A stretch of 64,000 nucleotides of DNA. It comes from a virus. The notes beneath the pieces are model-generated. The model ran no database searches and was not told where the DNA came from. It worked only from the letters and a program-made list of their open reading frames with translations. Of this stretch, positions 17,880-57,771 are shown in pieces. The position numbers and the translations under genes were made by a program. Location: positions 26,478-90,477 of IMG/VR virus record IMGVR_UViG_3300030116_004360. One strand, given 5' to 3'. How positions within the stretch are numbered: position 1 is the first letter of the stretch; each line of letters begins with the position of its first letter.

Positions 17880-18081
17880 CTGTTCTCCACTCCTTTATTG
17901 TTTCTAATAACATCTTAAAAAAACCATCATCTCTTCTTTGTTTGATAGATAATTCAAGAATAGTTTTTTCTAACTCATCAATCCTAACATTATATTTAGT
18001 TTCAATACTTTTCAATTTTTCTTCTAGTTCACTAACTCTAGTTGCTAACTTATCATCTTTTCTTCCAAACATTAAAACCAC
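17872..18081 (-). CDS. small coiled-coil protein
   Basis: Heptad-rich 69 aa ORF. Confidence 0.55.
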   Translation of the reverse strand: MVLMFGRKDDKLATRVSELEEKLKSIETKYNVRIDELEKTILELSIKQRRDDGFFKMLLETIKEWRTDE

Positions 18082-24947: not shown

Positions 24948-25255
24948 TATTTCACCTCTTGTTCATATTTTTTAATATCTATTTTCCATGCTGCATTTCT
25001 TTTATTTACATTTTCAATATAATTCAAAGAAGACAAATATCTTCCTGTTGCATAAGCCGTAGGCATATTTCTCATATGAAATGTAAGATGCGCCCCAGTC
25101 ATTTTAAAATAATCTTCGGCATTGTCTTTAGCCATCCAAAGAATATCTTTAGACCTAAAGGGTTCATTTCCATATATTAAATACCATAAATTTAAACCGT
25201 AATCAATATACTTTTTATGTTGTGGTTTAATTACCTGTCTTGTTTTACTCTTCAT
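24947..25255 (-). CDS. hypothetical protein (possible winged helix)
   Basis: 102 aa basic ORF in the operon. Confidence 0.55.
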   Translation of the reverse strand: MKSKTRQVIKPQHKKYIDYGLNLWYLIYGNEPFRSKDILWMAKDNAEDYFKMTGAHLTFHMRNMPTAYATGRYLSSLNYIENVNKRNAAWKIDIKKYEQEVK

Positions 25256-25952
25256 TTTTATTCACCTTTTGTATAACTATTTTCATTATTTGTTGATATT
25301 CATATTCTAATTGTTCTTTCAATATTTTTGGGTTTAGGCCCTTTGGGTTCATTAATCTTTTGATTCTATCCCTTTCTCTTCTTTTTTGCTTTTGTAATAA
25401 AGACCTTTCTTTCTTTGGAATAACTCTATCTCTTTGAAATATCAATCCTTTTTCATAAAGTTTACGCCTAGCGTGACTAATCATTGGCGGCTTAACTCCT
25501 AAAGTTTCGGCTATTTCAGAGACAGTCAATATCGAATGATTTTCAATTATATATTGTTGATTTTCTTTCAACCAAAGATTGAATGCGTGATTTCTTTTTC
25601 TTCCATCCTTTCTTTTCAAAGAAGAATATATTTTCAAAATTCTATTTGACCATGCTTCAAACCTTTCTCTTGCCTTTTCAAGACAAAGGGAATCCTCTTC
25701 GTGTCTTTTATAAACTCTGTTAAATTTATAAGATTCAACATAGTAATTATCACCAGTTTCTATTAACACACAAAGTTCATTAAAGGTTTCTTCATCTAAT
25801 TTTAAGGCTACCGTTTGCCACACACGACTAATTGTAGTGCTAGAAAACTTCGATGTTTTTTTAAACAACCTAAGTATTTCTTTTTGACTACTATAACTAG
25901 CACCAAAAATGGCTAGAAATTCTCTTTGATATTGACTAACCATCATAACCAC
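25245..25952 (-). CDS. HTH-containing protein
   Basis: HTH pattern LTVSEIAETLGVKPPMISHARRKL. Confidence 0.6.
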   Translation of the reverse strand: MVMMVSQYQREFLAIFGASYSSQKEILRLFKKTSKFSSTTISRVWQTVALKLDEETFNELCVLIETGDNYYVESYKFNRVYKRHEEDSLCLEKARERFEAWSNRILKIYSSLKRKDGRKRNHAFNLWLKENQQYIIENHSILTVSEIAETLGVKPPMISHARRKLYEKGLIFQRDRVIPKKERSLLQKQKRRERDRIKRLMNPKGLNPKILKEQLEYEYQQIMKIVIQKVNKNEE

Positions 25953-34064: not shown

Positions 34065-34991
34065 TTATTCCTCCCTATCAAATCTTATTCCATTAACAAA
34101 ATCATCTACTGTTATCATTTGTAATAGTTCTCTCTTTGCTTTACCTTTTACTGTAAAACCTAAATCCCTTAGAAGTTCATTAGTATTATTTCTCGTAGAA
34201 ACTGATGTTGTTTCTGTAACTTCTGCTATTCTTACTAAGGAAAAGTTTCTATGTAATATAGTTCTAGTTACATTCAACACTGTTGCAAAAAATGTTTTAG
34301 TTATTGGTTTTGGTTTAGCATAATAAATGCCTTCGACGTATTTACCAATAATGTGAGCAGTTTTAAGAAACTCAAAATCATTAGGACATAATTTACTAAC
34401 CAATAAATCTATTTCTTGAGGCACATTTTTTTGTGCAATAACATGAGGATTTCTAAAAAATCGTGCTACGATTCTTACCTGCTTAAATAAACTTCTTTCA
34501 CTAATATCTAACTTCTTAGCAGTTTGTTTAATAGTTATTGGTCTTCCTAACTCTTTTAGTGTAAAGAATGTTAAAGCACCTGCTCTAACTTCATAGGGTG
34601 TTCTTTTGAATAACCCAACACTATGCGCCCTTCTACAATATTCTACAAGAGTTTCTTGTGATAAAGGTGTAAAATTTCCATCAGTCATTTCAGTTAAAGC
34701 CATCTTAGAATACTTAATATTTATTTCTAAGGATTGGTGTTTTTTATGGCCGTGAAATTTTTCTGCTCTTTTAAGACGATAACCTATTCCTTCTTTTGCA
34801 TTTATGGGTGCAGAACCTAATTGACCTTTATCAGGAGAATGAATAGTTTCACCCGCCTTATTTAAACTATATGTTGTTTCTTCAAGTATAATTGATTCTG
34901 CTACTAATCCACAAGTATTACAAACAAATGACCCTAATCGGTCATCAAGAGTATATTCTCTTTCTCCACATTCAAGACACGGTTCTCGCAT
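34065..34991 (-). CDS. tfb: transcription factor B (TFB/TFIIB) homolog
   Basis: N-terminal Zn ribbon CLECG…CNTCGLV followed by two cyclin-like helical repeats. Confidence 0.8.
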   Translation of the reverse strand: MREPCLECGEREYTLDDRLGSFVCNTCGLVAESIILEETTYSLNKAGETIHSPDKGQLGSAPINAKEGIGYRLKRAEKFHGHKKHQSLEINIKYSKMALTEMTDGNFTPLSQETLVEYCRRAHSVGLFKRTPYEVRAGALTFFTLKELGRPITIKQTAKKLDISERSLFKQVRIVARFFRNPHVIAQKNVPQEIDLLVSKLCPNDFEFLKTAHIIGKYVEGIYYAKPKPITKTFFATVLNVTRTILHRNFSLVRIAEVTETTSVSTRNNTNELLRDLGFTVKGKAKRELLQMITVDDFVNGIRFDREE

Positions 34992-43482: not shown

Positions 43483-43520
43483 ATAATTAACTAAAGAATG
43501 ACCGGCTTATAAATCATTCT

Positions 43521-44084
43521 CTATTCTAAAGGAACATTAGCATTAAATTGTTTATTAAACTTAATTATTTGCTCTTGTTTCTTTTTGATGATATGGTCTT
43601 TAGGCCACCATGAAGGAGTTCCTGTCTTCCATGTGGCAAAATCCCATTTATCACCTAAGTAATATTGACGATATGCTTTAATTGCATCATCATCCTTATA
43701 TTTATCAGGCATAGCCTGTGCAAACGGAGTTAAACACTTATCTAACTCTCTTTTCTCTTTAAGAAGATTTGAACATTCTATGAAACTTAGTTCATATTTA
43801 TCCATATGTTCTTCCACTTTATGTTTTTTGTTATATCTGATTGTATACTCTTTACATAGGGCATAACAATGGTCTATCAGCCAATTGAAGTTTTTATAAC
43901 TTTTTCTCGCCCAAATAGTGCAAGGATGGTTGAGCATGACCGGCTTAAATGGGGCTGGAATAGCATAATGATGCAAAATAGTAGACAACATTTGGAGGCT
44001 TTCCGTTGGCATCTTAACTATATGCTTATCAATCATATATTCTGCTGCTAATTTAGGACAATCACTTAATATAAATATGTTCAT
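43521..44084 (-). CDS. pyrimidine-dimer DNA glycosylase-like (Pyr_excise family) protein
   Basis: MNIFILS…DKHIVKMPTESLQMLST…HPCTIWAR…FAQAMPD…AYRQYY. Confidence 0.75.
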   Translation of the reverse strand: MNIFILSDCPKLAAEYMIDKHIVKMPTESLQMLSTILHHYAIPAPFKPVMLNHPCTIWARKSYKNFNWLIDHCYALCKEYTIRYNKKHKVEEHMDKYELSFIECSNLLKEKRELDKCLTPFAQAMPDKYKDDDAIKAYRQYYLGDKWDFATWKTGTPSWWPKDHIIKKKQEQIIKFNKQFNANVPLE

Positions 44085-44109
44085 TGTTTATCACCTATGT
44101 AATAGAAAT

Positions 44110-44429
44110 ACGGTGCGAGTTCATAGTAAAGAGAAAAAACTACTATCATCTGTTTGCTAAAACCTTTTCTCGCTTTTATTTGATGCAAAACCGTGAATAT
44201 TATTCTGGGAACTAGTTCATAAAAATCGTAAATTACTATCAGCATCTAAAATGGTAAATTGGGCGGGTTTAATGTCCTATATTTAACATAGATGAACGGT
44301 TTTTCTAGTTTTTATTTGCTGCAAAACCCAGATGAATATTAAACAGGGAACTAGTTCATAGAAAAAAAGATACTACTATCAACGTGTGAAAAACGTTTTT
44401 CTAGTTTTTATTTGTTGCAAAACCCAGTT
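44110..44429 (-). ncRNA. tandem array of three structured ncRNA units
   Basis: Units at 44110-44194, 44204-44332 and 44342-44429 share TTTTGCANCAAATAAAA, TGATAGTA and TATGAACT and have covarying stems. Strand inferred from the flanking tRNAs. Confidence 0.6.
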
Positions 44430-44441
44430 ATATAATTTAGG

Positions 44442-44523
44442 TGCAGGTAGTAGGATTTGAACCTACGAAGCATTTTGCACCGGAACTTAACTCCGGCTCC
44501 TTTGACCACTCGGATATACCTGC
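44442..44523 (-). tRNA. tRNA-Leu(UAA)
   Basis: GCAGGTA/TACCTGC acceptor, CCGGA-GTTAAGT-TCCGG anticodon arm, long variable arm and GTAGGTTCAAATCCTAC T-arm. Confidence 0.85.
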
Positions 44524-44535
44524 ATTTTGTTATAA

Positions 44536-45270
44536 TTACTCATCAAATGAGACAAGTAATAGGATAAGATAGCCAATCAAGTCCATGATTACATCTTCAT
44601 CCTTTTCAATTGAATCATCTCCTTGAAGGAGCCTATTCAACTTATCATCAATTCTAACTCTAATTTGTTCATCACTATTTGCTTTACTGAATACTCTAAT
44701 TGGAGCAAGAACTGAATCACCATATTGCTTATTCTTAAGCAAAAGGAAGTGCGTAATTTCTCCACATTTCCTTGCAATCTTTTCTTGTGAATCTGTTAAT
44801 TTTGTTTCATTCTCAATTGTTTTATTTGCTTCTTCATATGCTTTAACCCAAGATGGAACTTCTTCTTTACCCATAAAATATTTCTTAAAGTTTTCAGTAT
44901 TTATTTCATTCTGAGCATCATCAATTGCATCTAACTTTTCTTCAGCAGTTGCATTTGTATATTGAGCAACTCCAGCAGCCTTTCTAATCTTTTGAACTTG
45001 AATCCAAAAATCACTTTGAAGACACAAATATGTTGACCTTCCTTCCTTGTGTGAATTAAACATATGTTTTATCATATTAAATCTCTTATACGCTGCACCT
45101 ACACTACAATAATTTATTTCCATATATGTGTCCAATAATACCTTTTTATTGATATCTGTATATTCTGAATTAATATCCATCATATGTGCTTTTCTCCAAG
45201 CCATCATAAAGTCATTAATTATCTTAAATTTTGTTTTTGCTTCTTTTTGTTTCTTATTCATTTTTTTCAC
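44536..45270 (-). CDS. protein with C-terminal DUF1599-like (nucleotide-modification-associated) domain
   Basis: KNKQYGDS…IRVRIDDKLNRL…DLIGYLIL. Confidence 0.65.
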   Translation of the reverse strand: MKKMNKKQKEAKTKFKIINDFMMAWRKAHMMDINSEYTDINKKVLLDTYMEINYCSVGAAYKRFNMIKHMFNSHKEGRSTYLCLQSDFWIQVQKIRKAAGVAQYTNATAEEKLDAIDDAQNEINTENFKKYFMGKEEVPSWVKAYEEANKTIENETKLTDSQEKIARKCGEITHFLLLKNKQYGDSVLAPIRVFSKANSDEQIRVRIDDKLNRLLQGDDSIEKDEDVIMDLIGYLILLLVSFDE

Positions 45271-45289
45271 CTTTTTGTTTGTCGAAAAT

Positions 45290-45570
45290 AGTGTGTATCA
45301 TAAGCGTATCAAACGCTGATACAGACGAAACATAACGATTCTCGACATAAATCGAAATGTTTCTTTTTGATTCGGGGTCATTAGTATCATGTATCATGTG
45401 TATCACCCTAGCCATATAGTTTTATTCTCTTAGGCTAATATTTTGACCCACCGGAGACAGATACACATGAGAATCATGATATATATGAGAATCAATATAA
45501 AATATATTAAAACAACTCTACTTTCCATAAATTCTATGTGTATTACTATGATACTCTATGAGACACATTA
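45290..45570. repeat. cluster of TGATAC/GTATCA and ATGAGA short repeats in non-coding DNA (origin candidate)
   Basis: gtgtgtatca, cgtatca, tgatacag, gtatcatgtatcatgtgtatca, gatacacatgagaatcatgatatatatgagaatca and atgatactctatgagacaca. Confidence 0.5.
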
Positions 45571-46005
45571 CTTTTCTTTCCCGATTTAAATACCCTCATC
45601 GCTAACACGTTGCTTATTTTCAGTCGTTTATTTATATATCAAAGAATATTAATGATTATACAAATCGAATGACTGATACTAAGTCGTTAATAATGAAACC
45701 CTAAATAATAGGCTTCATAATAGGATTAAAAGTTTTCATACCAACAGTAATAAATCCATGATATACACTTAGGTAACATTAATGAAAACAAGTCAATAAT
45801 GCGGAGTTGAAAACTTCAACAGGTTTCTCAATATACAGGTCCGTCGGGGGGTATATAAAAGGGCGGGAGCCGGACCGTAGTTTTGAAAATGACTCAATTC
45901 AACGCATATGGTTGTGCTTTGTTCAATCCCCTGATTTTGAACAGGAGTGGCAAAGGCCATCTTTTTGTGCTAAGTTAAAGCACAAAGATATTTTACATAA
46001 AAATC

Positions 46006-46236
46006 TCATCTATTATTCCTCATATTTTTCATATGTTGTATTAATTGCTCTGACGTTAAAACAGTTTTACGTCGTGAATGAGTGGGTATTTCCATAATAT
46101 GAGCAGGATATTCTCTACCACATGAACATCTATCCCATTTTCTTGAATAACTTAAAATTGATAATGTTTTATGGCATTTAGGACAAACATACTTAATTGT
46201 TGGTTGATTATGCTTTAAACGTGGATTAACTCTCAT
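46006..46236 (-). CDS. small Zn-ribbon protein
   Basis: CPKCHK…RCSCG with an upstream GAGGGA RBS. Confidence 0.6.
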   Translation of the reverse strand: MRVNPRLKHNQPTIKYVCPKCHKTLSILSYSRKWDRCSCGREYPAHIMEIPTHSRRKTVLTSEQLIQHMKNMRNNR

Positions 46237-46255
46237 ACTACTTCCCTCAATAAAT

Positions 46256-46299
46256 AAAAAAAAGGGAGGTCGGGGGAATTAACCCCCAACCCCCCAAAA
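46256..46299 (-). terminator. GC-rich hairpin + U-tract terminator
   Basis: Minus strand GGGGGGTTGGGGG-TTAAT-TCCCCCGACCTCCC-TTTTTT, downstream of 46336..46833. Confidence 0.6.
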
Positions 46300-46335
46300 G
46301 TGCGATAAAGGCACAGAACATCAATTGCTGACTAT

Positions 46336-46833
46336 TCACTCCTCCTCGTCGTGAACAGGCATTCCATCGGTTAGACCTTCTAGAGTTCCATCCCATGTTT
46401 CAGCCTTAAATGCCTTAGTCATCGCTGAACGGGCTTTCTTGCCCATATACGATGCATATTCTGTTGCGTCTGCAAATGCTCCTCCACCTGCTTTTCCATG
46501 CTTCAAGATAACTGCTTGAATTGTGGAATCATGGTTGAAAAAGTTGCGAGAAGCATCTTCAACGGTTTGAACAACCGAATCAACAACTACTCTTACAGAA
46601 GCAGGTAAAGACGGTTTAATACCGCGTCGAACCGGAGAACCCGGCATTCCGCGAATAAGTGACTTAATACTGTCCCAAACCCTATCTCTCTGTTCCTCAT
46701 TCTCGCTTCCCAAAGTTATCTGGAAATTAAGAACTTGAGCCAACTGGTCATTAACTGCATCAGTGGCTATAAATTCATTCAATTCAATTACTTTACTATT
46801 CCAATCTTGTGTATCCATTTTTTTCACCTTCAT
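46336..46833 (-). CDS. cassette protein, paralog A
   Basis: Shares PGSPVRRG, KHGKAGGG and WDGTLE with 49240..49779. Likely start is ATG at 46818 after GGTGA. Confidence 0.8.
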   Translation of the reverse strand: MKVKKMDTQDWNSKVIELNEFIATDAVNDQLAQVLNFQITLGSENEEQRDRVWDSIKSLIRGMPGSPVRRGIKPSLPASVRVVVDSVVQTVEDASRNFFNHDSTIQAVILKHGKAGGGAFADATEYASYMGKKARSAMTKAFKAETWDGTLEGLTDGMPVHDEEE

Positions 46834-47163
46834 TTGTGTTTTCGTTCTGCGCCTTTATCGGCAAAATATCCATATTCAAACCCCATATAAAGGGTTGCAT
46901 AGCAAAGTGCAACCATATGGTTGATACACATGATACACATGATTCTTAAAATTATTTTCTCAGATTCGATTTTTTGTTACCATTCTTATTTTCACACATT
47001 CATTAATACCATATGATGTGACTTTGGCGTATATCTTGTGCGGGTCACAATGGAGGGTTTTACCGGATTACCCACGAAATTTACTAAACGCCTTTGAGCG
47101 TCGTTCATTTCTCCATTGTGACCCATAAGGCCGTTTATCATCTCCTTTTACCTCCTTTCATAT

Positions 47164-47358
47164 TTAGTCCTCATTCAATTCACATTCGTCATTATTGCAC
47201 ATTCCAGATTCGTCATCAACATATGTATTACAGAATAGGCATAATAGGTCATCATAAGGCCCTATTTCCTTTATTTTCTTATTTTCAGGCTCAACATGGT
47301 TCCTAATTTGATTCAATAGTTCTGCTTCCTCTGGTGTTAGTTCGTGATTATCACTCAT
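47164..47358 (-). CDS. small Cys-rich cassette protein
   Basis: Probable leaderless start MSDNHEL; CLFC…CNNDEC. Confidence 0.6.
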   Translation of the reverse strand: MSDNHELTPEEAELLNQIRNHVEPENKKIKEIGPYDDLLCLFCNTYVDDESGMCNNDECELNED

Positions 47359-47467
47359 GTTAAACAGTAATTGCAGCATTATATCAAGATAGCCTCAAAG
47401 TATGCTATCATATGGTAATACTTTGTAATTACCTTAGAAATACTAAATCTTGTGTTATTTATAACTT

Positions 47468-47671
47468 ATGGAGGATAAGCAAAGCATGGATATGACCACA
47501 AATACACAAGAGCCACCTATTGTAGTAGAACCGCAATATACCATCGAAGTCGGACACGATAGATACCAAAACTTGATTATCAAGAGGTTACGTGTTTCAG
47601 GCGATGATTTAGAGCAGGTTTTTATACAATTGGAACAGGCATTGGCGGATTTTAAGATGATTAAAGAATGA
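47468..47671 (+). CDS. small cassette protein
   Basis: Starts about 50 nt after the repeat core at 47408. Confidence 0.6.
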   Translation: MEDKQSMDMTTNTQEPPIVVEPQYTIEVGHDRYQNLIIKRLRVSGDDLEQVFIQLEQALADFKMIKE

Positions 47672-47796
47672 CCAACCAATCAAGGGGGCATTATGATTGG
47701 TGGGAATTTATTCCAGATGAAGGACTTGAAATCCCTAAGAATACTAAACAATCTAACAACACTACCACTACGCAACGTGACGGTAAATCCTCTTAG
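47668..47796 (+). CDS. 42 aa peptide
   Basis: ATGA overlap; MTNQSRGHYDWWEFIPDEGLEIPK…. Confidence 0.4.
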   Translation: MTNQSRGHYDWWEFIPDEGLEIPKNTKQSNNTTTTQRDGKSS

Positions 47797-47971
47797 GTCG
47801 TGACCTAGGACGAAAAATGATAATACATAGTTATTATCGGCGGTAGATTACTTTTTCAGTGATATAATTAATTTTATATCACTTTAAAAGGTAATTACAA
47901 AGTATTACCATATGGTAACAACTTTCGTCGTTACCTTAAGAAACATAATAAAATCATTTACTTTGATTAAC

Positions 47972-48742
47972 ATGAGTGTAACCTATAACAGAACAATGAG
48001 TATCTATTACGATATTACCGACAGTCCATTGGATAATCCAACTATGAAGCGTAAGTTTGTGGCAGACCTAAGAAAGGTTGGTATTGCGGTCCACAATAGA
48101 TATGCTTACAATTCAGAGTTGAGGGAAGAAAAGTATGGTTTTACTGAAACTATGAAGGGTTCAGATAACTATGCTACTATCGTAAATGGTAATGAAGTAT
48201 TTTCATCATGGAATGAAAAGACCGTCATTAAATTGACTAACAATCTTATTGCGGCATTAGAGGATTCTGATGTTGAAATGCAGCAAACTGAATCAAAAAA
48301 GAAAGTGAAGAAATGGTCCGCTATTCAAGGAAAGTATTGTTATTTCGACGTTAGTGAAAAGTTAGATGGAACTCAAAACTGGAATCAAGATACAGTGATT
48401 GGTAAGCACTTACAATACGGTTCTCCTCAAAATGGTGACTATGTGACTATGAAGGTAGAATTTGAATTCAATTATGGTGAAATGAAAGTTAAGTTCGACA
48501 TCAATTGGGACACTAAAACAGTCCAAAAGAAAGCAGATATTGAGGCTATGGTGGTAGATGTTCCATTGAATGATATGGGGCATATTCAGAGAATTATTGA
48601 GAGAATTGCGAGTTACAAGAAGAATGGTGTAAATGTGGATAATCCGACAATTGAATGCCACTTTGATGCTAAAACAGAGAGTAGAAGCGAATGTGCGCCG
48701 GATATTATCGCAAAGGTGCGAGAAGCGCGTAAAACCGCATAA
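47972..48742 (+). CDS. cassette protein of unknown function
   Basis: The ORF-track start (47912) lies inside the palindrome; the likely leaderless start is MSVTYN at 47972. A UUCG hairpin follows the stop. Confidence 0.75.
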   Translation: MSVTYNRTMSIYYDITDSPLDNPTMKRKFVADLRKVGIAVHNRYAYNSELREEKYGFTETMKGSDNYATIVNGNEVFSSWNEKTVIKLTNNLIAALEDSDVEMQQTESKKKVKKWSAIQGKYCYFDVSEKLDGTQNWNQDTVIGKHLQYGSPQNGDYVTMKVEFEFNYGEMKVKFDINWDTKTVQKKADIEAMVVDVPLNDMGHIQRIIERIASYKKNGVNVDNPTIECHFDAKTESRSECAPDIIAKVREARKTA

Positions 48743-48849
48743 TTCCCCTATGTAAGTCGCCTTCGGGCGCATTAGGATAACTACAAAGCGTTACCATATG
48801 GTATTACTTTTGGAATACCTTAGAATATATTTTAAATATATATATTATC

Positions 48850-49116
48850 ATGATTAATTGGGCCGATGAAGTAAAACAATACAAAGAACAAGAAAGAGAC
48901 GGATATACTCAAACTGTGGAGGAATGGGTTGAATCTTTGGTTCCTGTTTACTATGTCGATTTAATCGGTGAATACGTAAGATTATGTTTAATGAATGAAT
49001 TAATTCCTAAATCATACGTTGGGATAGAAATATGGAAGTTTATGCAATCAAAGATATTTGACGAATATTTAGAATTGTTTTACAATGAACTTCATGTTCA
49101 AAATGAAGAGGAATAA
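48850..49116 (+). CDS. small acidic cassette protein
   Basis: Sole gene between repeats 48794 and 49144. Confidence 0.7.
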   Translation: MINWADEVKQYKEQERDGYTQTVEEWVESLVPVYYVDLIGEYVRLCLMNELIPKSYVGIEIWKFMQSKIFDEYLELFYNELHVQNEEE

Positions 49117-49239
49117 ACCCCTCTCAGGTTTATCAAAGTAACACCATATGGTAATACTTTCGTCATTATCTTATAAATACAGAATCAATTGCATTTTATT
49201 GGTCTTAGAGGGGCCAAGAACGAATGAAACCCAAAGGAG

Positions 49240-49779
49240 ATGAATAAAATGGTAAGCGATTATAGTATGGATGATGAAGCATGGAATAGACGAGTTAGTA
49301 AGGTTGAAGTTTTCCTTCAATCTAATGATGTTGGAGATTTATCAACGGTTCTTGAGTGGAATATCAACACAGGAAACAATGATTCTGATAACCGTAAAAG
49401 GTATTGGACTTCAATTACTACTCTATTAGGAATGTTGCCTAATAGCCCAATTCAGCGTGGTCGAGAAACTGACCTACCTGATGCAGTTGCTCAAGCAATT
49501 AGAGATGTAAAGGCTATGGTAATAGAAAAGGAGACAGAGCATTATAACAATGGTATGGCTACTTTGATTGAAAAACACGGTAAATCTGGCGGGGGTCTTT
49601 ATGACTCTGCTGAAGAATATGCTGAAAAGATTGGAAAGGCTACGGCTACCCGATTGACTCGGTATTACCGCAATCACGATAAAAAGCGTGATGGCCCTAC
49701 ATGGGATGGAACACTGGAGAATGGCCTTCCAACGGTCAATTACCCAGTAATCAGCATGGAGGCTGAAGAAGAGGAATGA
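49240..49779 (+). CDS. cassette protein, paralog B
   Basis: PNSPIQRG, KHGKSGGG and WDGTLE are shared with 46336..46833. Confidence 0.8.
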   Translation: MNKMVSDYSMDDEAWNRRVSKVEVFLQSNDVGDLSTVLEWNINTGNNDSDNRKRYWTSITTLLGMLPNSPIQRGRETDLPDAVAQAIRDVKAMVIEKETEHYNNGMATLIEKHGKSGGGLYDSAEEYAEKIGKATATRLTRYYRNHDKKRDGPTWDGTLENGLPTVNYPVISMEAEEEE

Positions 49780-49922
49780 GGTCGTTCAACGGCCCCTCTT
49801 CCCAATACCCCAATGACCCACTTAATTGTGGTGAGGGGTGTTATGGGTTAATTACAAAGTATTACCATATGGTAAGGAACTTTGTTCACGAACCTTAATT
49901 ATACGTCAATTAAGTAGTTATC

Positions 49923-50276
49923 ATGAACCCCGAAACAATTGAGAACTTCTTGGACAGAAACGGACTTTATGATGCATTTACTCCTTATGAGGTTGAATCT
50001 GATTATCAAAGAAGTTGCGGATTTGTTTCTCGGATTGTAGGTGATTTAGCGGGTTGGCTTGAACATAAAGAAAACTGTGCTTATGCATGGATTATCTGGC
50101 ATATTGGAAAGAATGAAGTTCGTAAGTTTGTTACACTTGAGCATCTTTATGGACAACGTGAGGAATATGTTAAAGATGCTTTAGAGGGTGATTTTGGGGC
50201 TATGTTGTTAGTATTACAGGCAGAAACAATGATTCAAGAAATAAATGAATTAAGACATATAGGGAGTAGTGATTAA
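49923..50276 (+). CDS. cassette protein of unknown function
   Basis: Starts after the ACCTTAATTAT promoter-like arm of repeat 49865. Confidence 0.7.
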   Translation: MNPETIENFLDRNGLYDAFTPYEVESDYQRSCGFVSRIVGDLAGWLEHKENCAYAWIIWHIGKNEVRKFVTLEHLYGQREEYVKDALEGDFGAMLLVLQAETMIQEINELRHIGSSD

Positions 50277-50354
50277 GAATGAGAAATAGATGTAGTGAAT
50301 GTAATGTATTTGTGAGTAAGAACGTAATAATGTGTTATAAGTGCAGGTGTGTAA

Positions 50355-50468
50355 ATGAGTGATGAAATTAAAATGAATAAGGAAGAATTGGAACGATTGG
50401 CGTTTTATCGCTCAATGGGGCTTAATTTTGAAGCAGTTAAGATTTACAAAGGAAGTGAAGAAGAATGA
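50355..50468 (+). CDS. 37 aa peptide
   Basis: AGGTG RBS; MSDEIKMNKEELERLAFYRSMG…. Confidence 0.5.
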   Translation: MSDEIKMNKEELERLAFYRSMGLNFEAVKIYKGSEEE

Positions 50469-50644
50469 GTAATTTTCAAAGAAGGCATTATGAGTTAATT
50501 GCTATGCAATTAGCCCAATGTGATGCGGATGATTCAGTTATTGAAGCGTTGATTAAAATGTTCAAATGGGATAATTCTCGATTTAATCCTCAAAGGTTCA
50601 AGGATGCAATTCAGAATCATAAGACCCGAACTCCTGTTATTTAG
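50465..50644 (+). CDS. 59 aa hypothetical protein
   Basis: ATGA overlap; MSNFQRRHYELIA…DNSRFNPQRFKDA. Confidence 0.6.
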   Translation: MSNFQRRHYELIAMQLAQCDADDSVIEALIKMFKWDNSRFNPQRFKDAIQNHKTRTPVI

Positions 50645-50729
50645 CAGGGTTCTACTCGTCAAAGAGAATAGAACCATATGGTGCTATACTTTGAATGAAC
50701 CATAAAGTCCGGTCTAATAGCATATAAGT

Positions 50730-50969
50730 ATGAGGCACATACTAATGATTGCAGAAATGATTGAAAATATGAGCGAAAGTGAAAAGATTACATTTCAATA
50801 TATATTTGAAATGGGAGATAGTCGTGACTTTGATAAGCCGTTTAAATCTGTTGATAACTTCCTTAACGCAATATATTCTCTTATGGATATACATAATGAA
50901 GCGTTGGTTGAAGAACAAATGAATATTGTTGATGATTACTTTGATGATTATAATGAACCTATCATCTGA
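50730..50969 (+). CDS. small acidic cassette protein
   Basis: Sole gene between repeats 50674 and 51006; followed by a CCCTTCGGGG hairpin. Confidence 0.65.
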   Translation: MRHILMIAEMIENMSESEKITFQYIFEMGDSRDFDKPFKSVDNFLNAIYSLMDIHNEALVEEQMNIVDDYFDDYNEPII

Positions 50970-51058
50970 TTATCTCCCTTCGGGGAACTTTACTCAAAGT
51001 TCGTTCCATATGGTATTAAAACTTTGAGAGATAATATACCCCGAAGGGTTTTTTTAGG

Positions 51059-51352
51059 TCAGATAGGGCATCTATCTAACCATTCTCTAACACTCTCTTC
51101 AACAGAAGCATTACTCTCTATTTCATCAATCAAGTATTCAATCGCATTAAAGTTCTCAACAGTCATCAAATGAAATTCATTGAAACCATAATGCTTCATA
51201 TTATCAATAAGTCGTTGAAGATTTCTTTTTTCCCTTTGAACCATTACTCCACCTACATTTGAATCAATTATATCATCTGGCATTCGCCATCTATTGACTC
51301 TAACTTCAACCATCTTGTTAAACCAGTTATTGTATTCGGTTTCGGAACTCAT
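51059..51352 (-). CDS. cassette protein
   Basis: Sole gene between repeats 51006 and 51402; UUCG hairpin after the stop. Confidence 0.7.
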   Translation of the reverse strand: MSSETEYNNWFNKMVEVRVNRWRMPDDIIDSNVGGVMVQREKRNLQRLIDNMKHYGFNEFHLMTVENFNAIEYLIDEIESNASVEESVREWLDRCPI

Positions 51353-51449
51353 GTTATATCTAATTTTGAGTATTATGTAAGGTAACTCTCAAAGTTTATT
51401 ACCATATGGTATTAGATTAACTTTGAGATAAAACAAAGACCCCGAAGGG

Positions 51450-51587
51450 TCAATGATTATGCGTCTTGATACGCATTAAGAGGATATATTCCTCTGGAGT
51501 CAAATACTTATGACGTAGTTCATCTACGCATCCTTCACACATCTTATTTCCAGTTGTAAACATTTCATCAAGGCAATCATCGCACAT
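51450..51587 (-). CDS. 45 aa Zn-finger cassette protein
   Basis: Manual translation MCDDCLDEMFTTGNKMCEGCVDELRHK…; ends in a GACCCTTCGGGGTC hairpin. Confidence 0.6.
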   Translation of the reverse strand: MCDDCLDEMFTTGNKMCEGCVDELRHKYLTPEEYILLMRIKTHNH

Positions 51588-51689
51588 AATTATCGGATTT
51601 CATCATCTTTATGAGGTTTATTCACAAAGTTCGCACCATATGGTAACTACTTTGAAATTACCTTAAATAATTGAATTAATTCAATATTA

Positions 51690-51887
51690 GTGCAAGGAAG
51701 ATACATTAGCAATACCACCACCAAGACCAAACGCACTTCGGCATCTTAACGAGATAATGCCTCATAATCGGCCAATTATGGGGATGCACCTTTAGAAACG
51801 GGATTTTGTCGCAATCGTCACTGTGAGGTCACTGTGACGCTTTTCAATGTCTTTGTTCGGATTCCTAGGATTCGCACTAACTTGCAC
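51690..51887 (+). ncRNA. putative structured ncRNA cassette
   Basis: No long ORF between repeats 51636 and 51915. Terminal GTGCAAG/CTTGCAC stem with internal hairpins, placed at the usual distance from the promoter arm. Confidence 0.4.
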
Positions 51888-51979
51888 CCATTTGGGTTTT
51901 ATTCAAAGTTAATACCATATGGTAATGCTTTGAAACTACCATACAACAATTGTTTATACTATTAATAGTGAGGTAAAAT

Positions 51980-52384
51980 ATGCTGGAAATATATGATTAT
52001 ATAGAAGAAAGAGTGAATGAAGAAAATGAATACGTTAATGAGGAATACGGTGAAGATATGATATTTTGTATTGATACAATTTATGAGGATTTTCAGGAAC
52101 AAGTGCCTGAACATTTAATTATTAAATACAACTTAGATGAATATTGTCCATTAGAAACAAGTAATAAAGATGCAATTGTAGTGTTAAAGGATTGTTTTGA
52201 TGAATGGGTTAAAGAAACTAACCCGTTTAGTTGGGACGGTATTGAGCGCAAAATACGAATATATAGAAATGATATGGAAGATATGCGAAGAACTCAAGCG
52301 GCTGAAATGGGTTGCCATGACTATTATGGCGGTAATTATCATCAATCTGATTATGTTGATAATATGTGGTCTAGCCGTTATTAG
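51980..52384 (+). CDS. acidic cassette protein
   Basis: GAGGT RBS; followed by a GCCCTTCGGGGC hairpin. Confidence 0.7.
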   Translation: MLEIYDYIEERVNEENEYVNEEYGEDMIFCIDTIYEDFQEQVPEHLIIKYNLDEYCPLETSNKDAIVVLKDCFDEWVKETNPFSWDGIERKIRIYRNDMEDMRRTQAAEMGCHDYYGGNYHQSDYVDNMWSSRY

Positions 52385-52464
52385 ACCAAATTGTGCCCTT
52401 CGGGGCCATATATCTCAAAGTTACGTCCATATGGTATTAACTTTGCAAAAATACCCCGAAGGGA

Positions 52465-52878
52465 TTAATTGTGTAAATCATACTTAGCCCCCTTGTGGTA
52501 TTCTTCAACCATTAACTGAGTAATGTAATTATTTTCATACAAATATTCAAGAGGCTCATAATTACTCAATAAACGAAGTAATACATCAATTTGAAGTAAA
52601 AGTTCTTGATTAAATGTAAGTCCAAGAGTCCTCAATTCATTATCATAGTGCATACTAATCAAACTCTTTTTTTGGTCACAATCAATACTAGTTTCAGAAC
52701 CACATCTATAACACCTATAAATATCAAATCCCCATGCGCCAAACTCATCAGAATCAATTTCACAGTTTTCATATTCCCATTTATGTTCACACTCCTCAAT
52801 AGGCATAATAGGCCCAATGTTCCTAAATGCCGTTTCAGCGTTCTTATTCAATTCTTCCAAAACTGTTGGTATCTCCAT
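52465..52878 (-). CDS. cassette protein with Zn-ribbon
   Basis: CEHKW…RCYRCG; leaderless start after the left arm of repeat 52928. Confidence 0.7.
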   Translation of the reverse strand: MEIPTVLEELNKNAETAFRNIGPIMPIEECEHKWEYENCEIDSDEFGAWGFDIYRCYRCGSETSIDCDQKKSLISMHYDNELRTLGLTFNQELLLQIDVLLRLLSNYEPLEYLYENNYITQLMVEEYHKGAKYDLHN

Positions 52879-52986
52879 AGTTATATACTAAAATGCCAGT
52901 AATATATGGCAATTCTCAAAGTTATTACCATATGGTATTGTAACTTTGAAAATAATACCTTATATCCTGTATTTGAGTATATAACT

Positions 52987-53466
52987 ATGGAGTTACCCGA
53001 ATTGAACATCAATAAGAACGCAAGAAGTAACAGTCAATGCACATTACATATATGCAGGACTGGTAAAAAGAAGCAATATTACACCCTATATCATGAAGGT
53101 GTGCATATTAACGATTATGGTGGTAATTACTTTTGTGATTATAATGGTAATCTGTCTTATAATTTTGAAAAGGCTGTTAAAAAGGCTATTGTTAGATTTA
53201 ATGAAATAGTAGATTGCGGATACTGGTTTTCTGTTGGTATCGAATATCATGAAGAACCTCGATTAATATATAATAGAGTTGAAGCCTTTGGTATGACTTT
53301 TAAAACTGCTAAATCTGGCAAAGTTATGTGGGGTATCGCTAATAGCGATTTTTGGAATCATTGGAAAAAGGACAAGCAAAAGGTCAAAGATGCAGGTTTT
53401 TGGGTCAAAAAGGTTGATTATCAATGGATGGTATTTTGTAAGATAGAGGCTCAATATGCCGATTAA
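52987..53466 (+). CDS. cassette protein of unknown function
   Basis: Likely start MELPEL (52987) after the right arm of repeat 52928; GCCCTACGGGGC hairpin after the stop. Confidence 0.7.
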   Translation: MELPELNINKNARSNSQCTLHICRTGKKKQYYTLYHEGVHINDYGGNYFCDYNGNLSYNFEKAVKKAIVRFNEIVDCGYWFSVGIEYHEEPRLIYNRVEAFGMTFKTAKSGKVMWGIANSDFWNHWKKDKQKVKDAGFWVKKVDYQWMVFCKIEAQYAD

Positions 53467-53717
53467 ACGCCCTACGGGGCCTATATCTCAAAGTTAAGTC
53501 CATATGGTTGTTGATACGCAGTTAAACACCTTATCAGGTTTTTATAGGATATGACTCGATACATCTCGCAATATCATATTTCCAACCATATGCTTTGCAT
53601 CCGAAAATTTTTTTTATTTCAATTAATCGTTTTTATGCATTGTTGGGTCAAAAAACTTAGTATCTTCACCCACATCTATATAACCTCAACGCTCATAGCC
53701 CATTTGTAGGGTTTAGT

Positions 53718-53933
53718 ATGACTGATTCTAACGAAATTCTTGCACAATTAAAAGAAATTCGTAAAACATTAACTGATGAGTTAAATCGTTTTAAAAAACT
53801 TTCAGACATACCAACAGACATTAAAACTACTTTAAAACAAATAGAGTCAAAGTTGGCAGAACTATACAAAGAGATAGATTTACTATCAAATCAAACAAGA
53901 TTAGAACAATGGGGGGTTGAAATAGGTGAATAA
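53718..53933 (+). CDS. coiled-coil protein with C-terminal PIP-box-like motif
   Basis: Ends …NQTRLEQWGVEIGE. Confidence 0.6.
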   Translation: MTDSNEILAQLKEIRKTLTDELNRFKKLSDIPTDIKTTLKQIESKLAELYKEIDLLSNQTRLEQWGVEIGE

Positions 53934-54130
53934 TAGTTTTATTAATTCATTGAATAAATCAAACATTCTTTATTGTTCTAACATAATCTTTAAAACATAT
54001 TAATTAAAATACAATCTCTTATTCTGGAAATAGAATAAATAACATTAAAAAAATTTTGCTAGTCCCACAAAAATTTCCGGCCAAAAATTGAAAAAAGGTG
54101 TGTTAAAAAATTAATCCTACGGTGAGAGAT

Positions 54131-54484
54131 ATGAGTTGGGAAGATATACTAAAAGCAGAATTTAGGTTTAACGACATTGTATTCAAACCCCATCGTAATG
54201 AACCTCAAGGATGGGAATTTAATAAGGAATTTAAAAATGGTTTATTTATAAGTATTATCGCTGGAACTGGAGTATCTTATTCTAAGCCTAGAGGTAGATT
54301 AGAAGACCCTATGGCTTATACAGAATATGAAATTATGGTGAACACTAATGATAAAAATAATCAGTTAGGTCTAAATCCAGACGGTATAGGTAGTTATAAA
54401 ACTAAAGAAGAAATTGAAGATATAGTCAATAGAGCAATCAAATTAACTGATAAAGAAAATGAAGGAGAGTTTCAATTTGCATAG
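54131..54484 (+). CDS. SW..ILK-motif protein
   Basis: MSWEDILK after a GGTGA RBS. Confidence 0.7.
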   Translation: MSWEDILKAEFRFNDIVFKPHRNEPQGWEFNKEFKNGLFISIIAGTGVSYSKPRGRLEDPMAYTEYEIMVNTNDKNNQLGLNPDGIGSYKTKEEIEDIVNRAIKLTDKENEGEFQFA

Positions 54485-54493
54485 GTGATTAAA

Positions 54494-54697
54494 ATGAGTT
54501 GGGAAAATATAATCAAATTTGAAAGAGACCCCTATTTTTATGGGGAATCTTATATGGAACAGGTTGAAGAAATCGGTGAAGATATTAAAAAGGTTATTGA
54601 GTATTTAGAATCAATACGCATAAGTATGCCTAGTAAAAATTCAGTAAAAATTCAAACTGCAATTAAAATGTTAGAAGATATATATACGGGGACATGA
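54494..54697 (+). CDS. SW..ILK-motif protein
   Basis: MSWENIIK after GGTGA. Confidence 0.7.
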   Translation: MSWENIIKFERDPYFYGESYMEQVEEIGEDIKKVIEYLESIRISMPSKNSVKIQTAIKMLEDIYTGT

Positions 54698-57114: not shown

Positions 57115-57771
57115 ATGGTAACTCGCCGTCGTTGTAAATTCTGCCAAGATGCGGATAGAGATAACTTAGAGGCCATGTTAGAACAAAATAGAATGACTCC
57201 CGACCAAATAGATAGAGAAAAAGGATGGCCTAGTGGAACATCTTCAAAGCATCAAAGGAATCATATGGGAGATTATGTTAATTCTTCTAATCCACAGTGT
57301 AATTTTTGCACAAATCCTATGAGAGCCGATTTTGAAAGGGCTATGAGTGAAGGAGAATTAACCGCAGAAGCATTATCAGCAGCATTAGAAATGAGTAAAG
57401 AGCAAGTTAAACGTCATATGAAGCATCATTTACAACCTTTAGTCCAAGAATCGGCTGCAATTCAGTTAGCAAAGAAAGAAGTTGATGAAATTGATGTATT
57501 ATCTAACAATATTCAGCGTTTAGAAGCAAAAATTGACGAATTATTCAGTGATGATGATATAAGTGCAAGATATATTGATAGTTTGACTAAATTAGCAAAG
57601 GAAATACGTGAATCTCTCAAGTATTTGATGGAATTTAAGGGTAAATTGGTGCATAAACGACAAGATACCATTATTGTTGCTCAAATGCAGATAGTTCAAG
57701 AGGTTTTAGCACAACAACACCCTCAAGTTTGGCTAGATATTAAGGGTAAAATGGAGGAAAGATTACAATGA
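57115..57771 (+). CDS. tandem Zn-finger/HTH + coiled-coil protein (terminase small subunit candidate)
   Basis: Two CxxC…HxxxH repeats (CKFC…HQRNH; CNFC…HMKHH) followed by a helical oligomerisation-like region. Confidence 0.5.
   Translation: MVTRRRCKFCQDADRDNLEAMLEQNRMTPDQIDREKGWPSGTSSKHQRNHMGDYVNSSNPQCNFCTNPMRADFERAMSEGELTAEALSAALEMSKEQVKRHMKHHLQPLVQESAAIQLAKKEVDEIDVLSNNIQRLEAKIDELFSDDDISARYIDSLTKLAKEIRESLKYLMEFKGKLVHKRQDTIIVAQMQIVQEVLAQQHPQVWLDIKGKMEERLQ

Follow-up and report, generated by a model that had tools for sequence, protein, structure and literature searches.

Related viral genomes have exchanged, deleted, inserted and inverted small gene cassettes at a palindromic core, CCATATGG, which lies between two hairpins in each intergenic joint. 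The window, the whole 64,000-nt stretch analysed here (positions 26,478 to 90,477 of IMG/VR record IMGVR_UViG_3300030116_004360), holds ~20 small accessory genes in a row as self-contained units connected by this one palindrome, each unit having a TATA promoter, one or more near-leaderless small genes and its own UUCG 3′ hairpin. On balance, the region is best explained as an accessory-gene island whose units are connected by a single family-wide joint, resembling the promoter-early stem-loop (PeSL) cassettes of T4-type phages, with the core as crossover point. As far as our literature search went, the system is without a published description, and no account of a twin-hairpin cassette joint was found.

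Genomic setting and cassette content

Judged by its gene content, the source virus appears to be a magrovirus-like ocean virus of archaea with group B traits. It encodes a split PolB, a GroEL-like protein, an RNR and two ATP-ligases, one in the replication block and one in the structural block, a gene set that matches group B magroviruses as outlined in PMC5434244; the nearest PolB relatives belong to haloarchaeal tailed viruses. The cargo proteins of the island match no Pfam or PHROG family above noise and are just 25–45% identical, while the core is invariant over more than 500 sites. The gene on the left flank has no Pfam family above cut-off, and in relatives only its C-terminal third is conserved. 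As described in a preliminary reading of the window, each interval carries one to three small ORFs in either orientation (window coordinates throughout):

46006–46833, minus strand: cassette with ORFs of 165 aa (46336–46833, family A) and 76 aa (46006–46236, Cys-rich), parted by a long GC hairpin and T8 (46264–46295)
46992–47379, minus strand: cassette with ORFs of 49 aa (46992–47141) and 71 aa (47164–47379)
47468–47796, plus strand: cassette of two ORFs, 67 and 42 aa, the longer belonging to a family seen in 16 relatives' stretches
47972–48742, plus strand: gene of 256 aa from the TATA-consistent ATG; relatives in 15 stretches
48850–49116, plus strand: gene of 88 aa, C-terminal EEE; relatives in 7 stretches
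49240–49779, plus strand: gene of 179 aa, family A paralogue of 46336–46833 (34% identity)
49923–50644, plus strand: cassette with three ORFs of 117, 37 and 59 aa
50730–50969, plus strand: gene of 79 aa
51059–51352, minus strand: gene of 97 aa
51450–51587, minus strand: gene of 45 aa, Cys-rich
51655–51903, plus strand: cassette with a TATA-type arm and no ORF of at least 45 aa
51980–52384, plus strand: gene of 134 aa, the sole cassette with a close nucleotide relative (L123)
52465–52878, minus strand: gene of 137 aa
52987–53466, plus strand: gene of 159 aa from the TATA-consistent ATG; relatives in 5 stretches

Family A is a multi-copy family in the islands of relatives. The cassette at 51655–51903 is possibly an RNA unit.

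Anatomy of the joint

The window contains 13 copies of CCATATGG, confined to 46913–53507, against an expectation of 0.93; 100 shuffles reach at most 4. The complete 90,477-bp genome adds no further copy, and 10 of the 13 read ACCATATGGT. Together with four degenerate or half copies at 45905, 47010, 47409 and 53587, which mark edges, these account for the approximately 17 copies counted in the preliminary description, whose range of 45904–53597 is exact. Its single-nucleotide spacers between core and arms must be dropped, the literal pattern giving 0 matches even at 3 mismatches. Core and arm are separated by 4–11 nt in the island and by 2–12 nt family-wide, mostly 5–7 nt.

A half-site consists of one small hairpin (GG(T)-stem, loop CTTTG, stem′-(A)CC), and the full joint is laid out as hairpin, (A)CC ATAT GG(T), hairpin, so that the core's GG and CC close the two stems and each loop contains an arm CTTTG. 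The self-complementary core of 8–10 bp is the only sequence common to all joints, and each hairpin is inherited together with its own cassette. Next to a joint lies either an archaeal TATA box or the GC-rich, UUCG-type hairpin of the adjacent gene, the latter as already noted for gene ends. At nine island gene starts the TATA box, including the ACC(T/A)TA and AT-rich box described previously, stands 27–39 nt before the ATG (family mode 27). Arms are kept on 92% of gene-end sides and 96% of gene-start sides, as classified by regex-based promoter and terminator labels that left 482 of 976 half-sites without a label. Full sites between convergent gene ends, reported at 51006 and 52427, are confirmed. 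The joints, which have no strand, are mapped as follows:

45904–45921: leftmost half joint, degenerate core GCATATGG and right arm CTTTG; left island edge
46893–46920: half joint lacking a right arm, the opening half of a "split" site; left hairpin GGTTGCA/TGCAACC with loop CAAAG on the plus strand, core 46913–46920; on the left, TATA for the minus-strand genes 46336–46833 and 46006–46236
47008–47026: half joint completing this split site, 97 bp past 46913; degenerate core CCATATGA and right arm CTTTG
47388–47433: full joint, degenerate core TCATATGG at 47408–47415, arms 47396–47400 and 47421–47425; a hairpin on either side, divergent promoters (P/P)
47898–47926: full joint (arm to arm), core 47908–47915, right arm CTTTC; hairpins GGTAAT/ATTACC and GGTAAC/GTTACC; TATA 47933 for gene 47972–48742
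48784–48812: full joint, core 48794–48801, type T/P; on the left, follows the UUCG hairpin of 47972–48742; on the right, TATA 48817 for 48850–49116
49134–49161: full joint, core 49144–49151, right arm CTTTC; upstream of gene 49240–49779
49855–49884: full joint, core 49865–49872; TATA 49892, then ATG 49923 (28 nt)
50660–50693: full joint, core 50674–50681, left spacer 9 nt, with a stem of 7 bp (GGTTCTA/TAGAACC, outward strand); TATA 50699, then ATG 50730
50995–51026: full joint, core 51006–51013; convergent gene ends (T/T), GC tetraloop hairpins on both flanks, no TATA
51390–51425: full joint, core 51402–51409, right spacer 11 nt; on the left, TATA 51383 (minus strand) for 51059–51352; on the right, 3′ hairpin of 51450–51587
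51625–51654: full joint, core 51636–51643; TATA-type arms on both sides (right 51660)
51904–51932: full joint, core 51915–51922; hairpin ATGGTA/TACCAT; TATA 51938 for gene 51980–52384
52416–52445: full joint, core 52427–52434; convergent gene ends (T/T)
52917–52948: full joint, core 52928–52935; P/P for genes 52465–52878 (minus strand) and 52987–53466 (plus strand)
53489–53507: half joint, first part of the right-hand split site; left arm and core 53500–53507, no right arm
53586–53597: degenerate core CCATATGC overlapping an arm CTTTG; right island edge

Breakpoints in related genomes

IMG/VR contains 514 sites in 119 stretches (108 contigs). At least two sites are present in 98 of the 119 viral stretches (median spacing 632 bp) and in 0 of 120 stretches of cellular genomes, where the same pattern gives isolated single matches only. 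The relatives were picked by an exact core with both arms at 4–8 nt, so the site that seeded each stretch is conserved by construction; the remaining ~395 sites in the 119 stretches are free of this pattern-based ascertainment.

Comparison of these genomes bears out the earlier view of the element as a cassette boundary and not merely an operator: replacements, a deletion and an inversion terminate at CCATATGG, and shared gene families differ in order and orientation. Between relatives at least 85% identical, homology continues through the core and then breaks off, and one inversion is confirmed with both flanks. Megablast HSP ends fall within 25 nt of the dyad in 31 of 156 cases versus 9.3 expected (largest 20 in 1000), the other 125 lying away from any joint. 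None falls just before the dyad and 11 fall within 5 nt after it, a pile-up that is partly method-made because the aligner extends through any conserved core; since the core is invariant, the crossover position is resolvable only to the core. Across 30 inspected junctions, identity typically spans the near arm, spacer and core, then ends. Recurrent half-site classes have at least two partners in 50 of 143 cases, compared with 32 of 204 for a pseudo-dyad placed 96 nt off, and a cruder, window-based test gives only a modest contrast in discordance (0.75 across the core vs ~0.55 elsewhere). Within the island, the cassette at 51969–52445 is 77.7% identical to L123 over 484 nt, with homology ending at the far arm of the 52416–52445 joint, and the segment 53480–53595 is conserved in three relatives (L078, L070, L109) at 75–78%. 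The core is the site at which cassettes were exchanged, deleted, inserted and inverted; the relatives' data record evolutionary outcomes, not the mechanism of the putative active capture platform first proposed. Inversions at the joint follow from the core being identical to its reverse complement.

Conserved folding and strand bias

Among 789 half-sites, perfect stems of at least 5 bp number 170, versus 32.5 with swapped partners (largest 46), and the mean best perfect stem is 3.16 versus 2.24 (sd 0.035); DNA folding energy is −2.34 versus −1.23 kcal/mol (sd 0.04). The stems covary, their structure being conserved and their sequence not. The hairpins are weak (mean −2.3 kcal/mol), and 319 of 787 half-sites lack a full-length stem even when one mismatch is allowed. 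On the strand leaving the dyad, G·T wobbles outnumber A·C mismatches 50 to 7 (background ratio 0.9, p = 2e-10), a bias that is alike beside gene starts (19:3) and gene ends (10:2); on either side of the dyad, the selected strand runs 5′ to 3′ outward. Spacer length correlates with arm-to-TATA distance (r = 0.62). Left and right spacers are not complementary (0.434 vs 0.448 shuffled), so a long attC-like hairpin pairing both arms is absent. Of the attC-like bulged hairpin of the preliminary description, the idea that a folded form matters is supported, but the fold itself gives way to two local hairpins with an arm in each loop.

Explanations of the joint

We favour, with some reserve, a PeSL-like cassette joint. 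It would be a conserved intergenic punctuation element kept for a role of its own, most probably as a DNA-level target that a viral or host protein recognises by its folded outward strand and core. Because the joint is repeated in both orientations, the virus's general machinery for replication and recombination could cross over at the core during co-infection, reshuffling accessory genes; this machinery would include nucleases, the two ligases and the RadA-like protein reported for magroviruses. An identity of 8–10 bp is short for classical homologous recombination, which favours microhomology, replication-slip routes or a dedicated enzyme. The data do not require a dedicated enzyme, and no binding protein, nuclease or recombinase was linked to the joint in the present analysis.

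Such an enzyme is nevertheless the basis of a second, unlikely explanation, a structure-guided site-specific recombination, integron-like in logic, in which an unrecognised viral or host protein binds the CTTTG-loop hairpins on the dyad-leaving strand and cuts and rejoins within ATAT, so that cassettes are actively excised, captured and inverted. Consistent with it are the shortness of the shared identity, the invariance of the core amid divergent cargo, a conserved structure with strand-specific wobble as in attC, joints kept intact between convergent genes where a promoter is needless, and many independent partner switches mapping to the core, one of them an inversion. However, the absence of a recognisable recombinase, noted before for the window, extends to the 90-kb genome: Pfam Phage_integrase and Resolvase give no match at E ≤ 1, and LAGLIDADG none by two models. 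The island flanks carry no conserved recombinase-type gene. Microhomology-mediated events could also yield every observed outcome.

Less probable again is a purely transcriptional element, an operator or insulator of the island promoters or a bidirectional RNA terminator, with breakpoints as a passive by-product. The joint adjoins TATA at gene starts, a TATA and inverted-repeat motif is reported to precede ORFs of the haloarchaeal virus HGTV-1 (PMC3950731), and the virus encodes wHTH and HTH proteins and a weak TFIIB-Zn-ribbon protein. A polymerase crossing the dyad either way would meet a selected sense-strand hairpin just past it, and 46914–46893, a hairpin followed by a T-rich TATA, scores terminator-like. 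Against this, variable core, arm and TATA spacing (sd 1.6–3.3 nt) and unconserved stems misfit a rigid dimeric operator, and joints also stand between convergent genes. At 3′ hairpins, 40 of 176 loops read UUCG in the incoming gene's sense, and T-runs lean the same way (26 vs 10); because genes have their own UUCG hairpins with same-sense T-runs, transcripts probably end before the joint is reached. Where promoters diverge (P/P) and no gene transcript is expected to cross the joint, the hairpins fold equally well (−2.65 vs −3.06 kcal/mol in this comparison).

Priming or replication-entry sites, at which the viral archaeo-eukaryotic primase would recognise twin hairpins on both lagging-strand templates formed when a bubble opens at ATAT, resemble the paired ssi sites of plasmid RSF1010 and are highly improbable here. 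The outward 5′-to-3′ selected strand is the lagging-strand template of a dyad-centred bubble, the island lies at the cumulative GC skew minimum and a strand switch, and magroviruses carry their own primase, MCM and SSB (PMC5434244), but ~16 origins in 7.7 kb, one per gene boundary, are without known precedent, and the skew minimum is confounded with gene orientation.

Comparison with known systems

PeSL cassettes, as presented in the accounts of Arbiol et al. 2010 (PMC2839356) and Comeau et al. 2014 (PMC4122927), populate hyperplastic regions of T4-type phages. The favoured PeSL-like reading draws on two likenesses: repeated short intergenic modules of stem-loop and promoter amid the small non-essential genes, functionally uncharacterised, of a variable block, and exchange points at which close relatives differ by whole-unit insertions, deletions and replacements. 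Unlike the PeSLs of these accounts, the present joint has an archaeal host and TATA-type promoters, sigma-70-like sites not being enriched (49 vs 45.6); its UUCG terminator hairpins are separate from the joint, which is a symmetric twin hairpin with conserved loops, covarying stems and an invariant 8–10 bp palindrome. Shared identity is far below a whole promoter-terminator repeat, and there is no sequence relation.

In HGTV-1, also an archaeal tailed virus, a TATA-like box and an inverted repeat precede most ORFs of the left part (Sencilo et al. 2013, via PMC3950731), a motif that its authors likened to PeSLs and for which they suggested a role in transcription and genome shuffling (PMC3950731). 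The likeness lies in the arrangement described; as rendered in PMC3950731, the HGTV-1 account has no palindromic core between back-to-back hairpins, convergent-gene joints or mapped breakpoints.

The integron- or shufflon-like architecture first proposed fails as a matter of membership: the search found no IntI, Rci or invertase, and cassettes facing either way carry promoters of their own. As with integron attC sites, small unrelated genes are arrayed around a site conserved in structure rather than sequence, with crossover in a short invariant core and strand-specific features of the folded form. Unlike in integrons, no tyrosine recombinase was found here, the site folds as a pair of local hairpins, one on each strand flanking a palindrome, rather than as a single long bottom-strand hairpin, and the genome is that of a lytic-type archaeal virus. 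As in shufflons and the invertible segments of the Rci and Hin/Gin family, DNA is inverted between short repeats; unlike there, the whole-genome Phage_integrase and Resolvase search found neither an Rci-type nor a serine invertase, the segments are complete genes, independent and with promoters, and not alternative ends of one gene, and the outcomes add replacement and deletion to inversion.

Cassette joints of the island

The accessory-gene cassettes of the island (window 45904-53597) are joined by a twin hairpin around an invariant palindromic centre; this joint stands between self-contained expression units throughout the family (the IMG/VR stretches of relatives carrying joints). The window contains 13 copies of the central palindrome, or core, CCATATGG, all at 46913-53507, against an expectation of 0.93 and a maximum of 4 in 100 shuffles. 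The complete 90,477-bp record, in which the window spans 26478-90477, has the same 13 only, ten of which read ACCATATGGT. Inspection of the flanks and a genome-wide half-site scan with relaxed criteria located four degenerate or half copies (45905, 47010, 47409 and 53587), and with these the 17 copies and the exact range of the preliminary description are reproduced. Its formula with single-nucleotide spacers between core and arms returns 0 matches, and variable spacers are needed: the distance from the core to the CAAAG and CTTTG arms is 4-11 nt in the window and 2-12 nt, mostly 5-7, across the family, where 453 of 527 exact cores carry A...T flanks.

Intervals between joints hold one to three small ORFs on either strand, and gene ends converge at joints 51006 and 52427, both as first described; gene starts diverge at 47409 and 52928. 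Each cassette has its own TATA box, both orientations are present, and the ~20 small island ORFs show no Pfam or PHROG family above noise. The island flanks are conserved (window 44.4-44.8 kb on the left; 53.48-53.6 and 54.0-54.1 kb on the right), with a mosaic interior. Further elements of the region are as follows.

Additional features in and around the island (window coordinates)
44442-44523, minus strand: tRNA gene (56.2 bits) at the conserved left flank
45290-45560, 46922-46945 and 53509-53516: GATAC-type repeats (e.g. TGATACACATGATACACATGAT and its reverse complement)
46903-47026 and 53489-53597: "split" joints, one at each island edge
51655-51903: cassette with a normal TATA-type arm (51660) and no ORF of 45 aa or more
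54001-54097: non-coding segment upstream of the first rightward gene (54122)

Each split joint comprises a left half-site and core, 87-97 bp without arms, and then a degenerate core with a right arm. The right-hand one is 75-78% conserved in three relatives (L078, L070 and L109), and its counterpart lies within a segment that has opposite orientations in L109 and in the contig of L078. GATAC-type repeats fill the ORF-poor, AT-rich DNA just left of the island, and in both split joints they reappear directly behind the core. Another factor might bind these repeats, or they might belong to an origin. The segment by the tRNA gene (44433-44528) is conserved in several relatives, and an Rfam search of 43500-54500 returned the tRNA as its sole pass, with no joint match at E ≤ 1. 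The non-coding segment is 75-81% conserved in at least 10 relatives' stretches and could serve the rightward block as its main promoter or control region.

Distribution and virus identity

The gapped joint pattern matches at least 119 stretches in IMG/VR from at least 108 distinct contigs, most of them 25-100 kb long. Rescanning the 119 stretches listed gave 514 sites, with two or more in 98 stretches, four or more in 71, and a median spacing of 632 bp. In the genomes of 185,579 species (one per prokaryote species), the same pattern yields, among the matches listed (at least 120 stretches in unrelated taxa), isolated single sites only, and a motif of host genomes was rejected on this ground. 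Compared by blastn with 50,697 phage records, the island gave no match, nor did the 2350-aa protein in a tblastn search, and no relative of the left flank gene was found in the viral contig set.

A family-B DNA polymerase is encoded in two pieces (ORFs 18968-20692 and 18072-18971); PHROG and Pfam also identify a GroEL-like chaperonin, a ribonucleotide reductase, RFC and, in the replication block, an ATP-dependent ligase. The structural block comprises terminase, portal, prohead protease, capsid protein and one further enzyme:

L251:10346-12775 (genome coordinates), plus strand: second ATP-dependent DNA ligase, 810 aa, between portal and prohead protease

The nearest polymerases, at ~27% identity, are those of haloarchaeal tailed viruses, and the virus DNA is found in marine and seawater metagenomes (20 DNA datasets from 12 studies). 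Split DNA polymerase, GroEL, ribonucleotide reductase and a ligase in the structural module are given for group B magroviruses, viruses of Marine Group II archaea, and the second ligase within the structural module for groups A and B, in sections of Philosof et al. 2017 (PMC5434244). All four group B traits are present here: split PolB, GroEL-type chaperonin, ribonucleotide reductase and the second, structural-module ATP-ligase. Judged by gene content rather than a tree, the virus is magrovirus-like with group B traits, and an archaeal host accounts for the TATA boxes and near-leaderless starts. In the ocean, magroviruses rank among the most abundant archaeal viruses; to our knowledge, neither they nor their hosts have been cultured.

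Half-site hairpins and the selected strand

Selection acts on the folded outward strand of each half-site. Pairing is local within each half: GG(T) and the spacer pair with the post-arm segment ending in (A)CC, which explains the correlation between spacer length and arm-to-TATA distance (r = 0.62). Among 789 distinct half-sites, the best perfect stem averages 3.16 bp versus 2.24 (sd 0.035) after exchange of 3' partners between sites, and stems of at least 5 bp number 170 versus 32.5 (largest 46). Mean DNA folding energy is -2.34 versus -1.23 kcal/mol (sd 0.04) with swapped partners of the same spacer length. The joint thus reads [GG-stem, loop CAAAG, stem-CC] ATAT [GG-stem, loop CTTTG, stem-CC], and the "core" is made up of the pairs that close both stems and the intervening ATAT. 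The hairpins are weak: of 787 half-sites scored, 219 have a perfect GG..CC-closed stem, 249 a stem with a single mismatch and 319 a poorer one.

Pairing of the left and right spacers in one long hairpin or cruciform was rejected, with no complementarity beyond composition (symmetric identity 0.434 versus 0.448 shuffled; perfectly symmetric sites 3/307). The attC-like bulged hairpin across the site, suggested in the preliminary description, falls with it, the two spacers being unpaired with each other. A dimeric transcription-factor operator, with its fixed half-site spacing and conserved contact bases, does not fit the 2-12 nt spacing, the stem bases that covary and are not conserved, or the joints between convergent genes. 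The earlier view of the element as more than an operator holds up.

Read on the strand running 5' to 3' away from the dyad with the CTTTG loop, interior single mismatches are G.T or T.G in 50 cases and A.C or C.A in 7, against a composition-predicted wobble ratio of 0.9 (p = 2e-10). With start and end labels leaving 482 of 976 half-sites unclassified, this bias is 19:3 beside gene starts and 10:2 beside gene ends, and the arms are kept at 96% and 92%, respectively. Being the same at starts and ends, the bias is not one of transcription-linked mutation. Divergent joints, which no gene transcript is expected to cross, have hairpins as stable as those of tandem joints (-2.65 versus -3.06 kcal/mol). 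Covarying stems, wobble bias, and arms and stability maintained across these settings point to a folded single strand under selection, most simply DNA, and to the outward strand on each side. This strand could be exposed in a bubble opening at the dyad, by displacement that starts from a nick there, or by the passage of a polymerase or helicase across it.

Promoters and gene-end hairpins

At gene starts, the arm is followed by ACC(T/A)TA, which has 56 copies genome-wide and 11 in the island. Nine of the 11 precede a gene start whose ATG lies 27-39 nt from the first T of the motif, and the TATA-to-first-ATG distance peaks at 27 nt across the family; copies outside the island lie mostly within coding sequence. 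Sigma-70-like sites are not enriched, the promoters being TATA-type. The hairpin directly adjoins the TATA box, forming a composite of stem-loop and promoter like that of the promoter-early stem-loop (PeSL) of T4-type phages.

GC-rich hairpins at gene ends, already noted in the window, are found across the family (n = 176). Read on the strand that leaves the joint, their most frequent loop is CGAA (40/176), equivalent to UUCG in the incoming gene's mRNA, and T-runs (at least 5 T in 8 nt) follow in the incoming gene's sense in 26 cases versus 10. The sense of the loop and of the T-runs identifies these hairpins as the genes' own 3' RNA hairpins. The joint thus comes after the likely 3' ends and before the TATA boxes; from this layout we infer that it is probably untranscribed. 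The listed sequencing runs containing virus DNA include no RNA dataset. Between two minus-strand genes of the leftmost cassette lies an element far stronger than the typical UUCG hairpins:

46264-46295, minus strand: 13-bp GC-rich hairpin followed by T8

Recombination at the joint centre

Comparison among relatives, which the preliminary description had proposed, reveals cassette exchange, loss and inversion ending at the joint centre. Gene families that the cassettes have in common with those of relatives are differently ordered and oriented; families B, A, C and D, for example, follow another order in L092/L037, L072, L062 and L022 than in the window. Alignments between relatives' stretches of 85% identity or more have 156 HSP ends within or close to islands, not counting those cut off where a stretch ends; 31 fall within 25 nt of a dyad versus 9.3 expected (largest 20 in 1000), and the other 125 lie elsewhere, many of them probably stemming from divergence. 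The ends are sharply placed: none precedes the dyad by 25 nt or less, and 11 follow it within 5 nt, a sharpness that is partly an effect of the aligner extending through any conserved core. Thirty junctions were inspected; typically, identity spans the near arm, spacer and core, and the sequences are unrelated right after GG. Individual events include the following.

Cassette differences between relatives
L094 versus L115: both flanks common; the 2.4-2.8 kb between two joints differs
L109 versus the contig of L123/L078: 1.4-kb segment difference bounded by joints
Inversion: ~340-bp segment flipped, both flanks unchanged in orientation
L037 versus L092: several single-cassette replacements

An aligner-free analysis of half-site classes present in at least two stretches finds 50 of 143 with two or more partner classes across the dyad, compared with 32 of 204 at a pseudo-dyad control 96 nt away. 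An ungapped-window test gives a discordance across the core of 0.75 versus ~0.55 elsewhere, a modest contrast, and the baseline of a k-mer breakpoint test was too noisy for use; the conclusion rests on the HSP ends, the inspected junctions, the partner classes and the inversion. Assembly chimeras are an unlikely cause of the mosaicism because the identity between different joints (8-10 bp) is shorter than the k-mers used by assemblers.

Encoded proteins and the mechanism of exchange

That no recombinase is recognisable holds beyond the window for the whole genome: six-frame searches with Pfam Phage_integrase (PF00589) and Resolvase gave no match at E ≤ 1, with matches in 14/14 and nearly all control genomes, respectively. 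Two LAGLIDADG Pfam models also gave no match; a nuclease of this type is reported for magroviruses in PMC5434244 and may be too divergent for both models. The genome encodes an ERCC4-HhH nuclease (14328-15026), a PD-(D/E)XK nuclease (16739-17626), two ligases and two HTH proteins of the wHTH type (25245-25952 and 57115-57771). Pfam TFIIB cyclin and TBP models found no match in the six frames of the genome. A weak HTH and a sub-threshold N-terminal TFIIB zinc ribbon (25.3 bits, cut-off 29) occur in one ORF, which may encode a divergent viral TFB:

34065-34991, minus strand: 308-aa protein

Family A, the cassette protein family with two copies in the island, includes these 34% identical paralogues:

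46336-46833, minus strand: family A protein
49240-49779, plus strand: family A protein

It is multi-copy in most relatives' islands, with 80 and 101 ORF matches in the 119 listed stretches and the window and up to 3-4 copies per stretch. Conserved features are the motifs SP..G, HGKSGGG and WDG and an acidic EEE tail (alignment A1); the family has no PDB sequence relative (best E 0.25), no Atlas match and no Pfam or PHROG family. An EEE C-terminus is also present in 88-aa and 37-aa cassette proteins.

We favour a joint that would have a function of its own in DNA and that, by its repetition, would serve as a crossover point, by analogy with the PeSLs of T4-type phages. An enzyme dedicated to the joint is a rather unlikely alternative. 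The invariant core, the conservation of structure and not of sequence, and the strand-specific wobble are the expected look of a dedicated system; our tests tied none of the nucleases, ligases, HTH proteins or the TFIIB-zinc-ribbon protein to the joint. Its fullest version, a new structure-guided DNA transaction in archaeal viruses, is about as unlikely and is offered tentatively. An enzyme that is neither a tyrosine nor a serine recombinase would read, to either side of the dyad, the outward strand folded into its hairpin with the CTTTG loop, nick or cut the central ATAT and rejoin it, so that cassettes with two half-joints could be excised as a circle, captured or flipped: an integron-like process of independent origin in viruses of marine archaea. 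A dedicated enzyme, if real, would represent a new class of cassette recombination; otherwise, archaeal viruses have in the joint a clear equivalent of the shuffling mediated by PeSLs, one whose crossover core spans just 8-10 bp.

The joint offers a simple grammar of the magrovirus accessory genome, in which units of promoter, gene and 3' hairpin are linked by twin hairpins. This grammar provides a first testable promoter model for magroviruses and automatic calls of cassette boundaries in hundreds of metagenomic contigs, and the joint offers a concrete route by which these viruses exchange small, uncharacterised genes. Stem covariation and wobble make it an answerable question which protein binds or cuts the outward strand.

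Comparison with known systems

A shufflon or DNA invertase, one of the architectures first proposed, lacks its enzyme: neither an Rci-type tyrosine nor a Hin/Gin-type serine recombinase was found in the whole genome with Pfam. The integron, the other, does not match either. No IntI gene was found, there is no attC-type cross-site hairpin, and whereas integron cassettes are mostly promoterless, co-oriented and served by a common promoter, joint cassettes carry their own TATA boxes in both orientations.

Our literature search found no description of the joint, a point on which supplementary tables and figures of magrovirus papers could bear; nothing relevant was found in the text of PMC5434244 and PMC11706807. 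Passages on HGTV-1, a haloarchaeal virus, describe a TATA and inverted repeat motif for which a role in shuffling is likewise proposed (PMC3950731). Crossover at PeSLs in T4-type phages is treated in parts of PMC2839356 and PMC4122927. Like PeSLs, joints combine a repeated stem-loop with a promoter in the spacers of a variable block of small genes, and indels and replacements between close relatives end in the repeats. Unlike PeSLs, they have no sigma-70-type early promoter, and the UUCG gene hairpins are separate from the joint, which does not itself act as the terminator. A further mark of PeSLs is small circular DNA arising by exchange of adjacent repeats. We read the elements described here as PeSL-like cassette joints that differ in architecture and belong to a host domain new for such elements.
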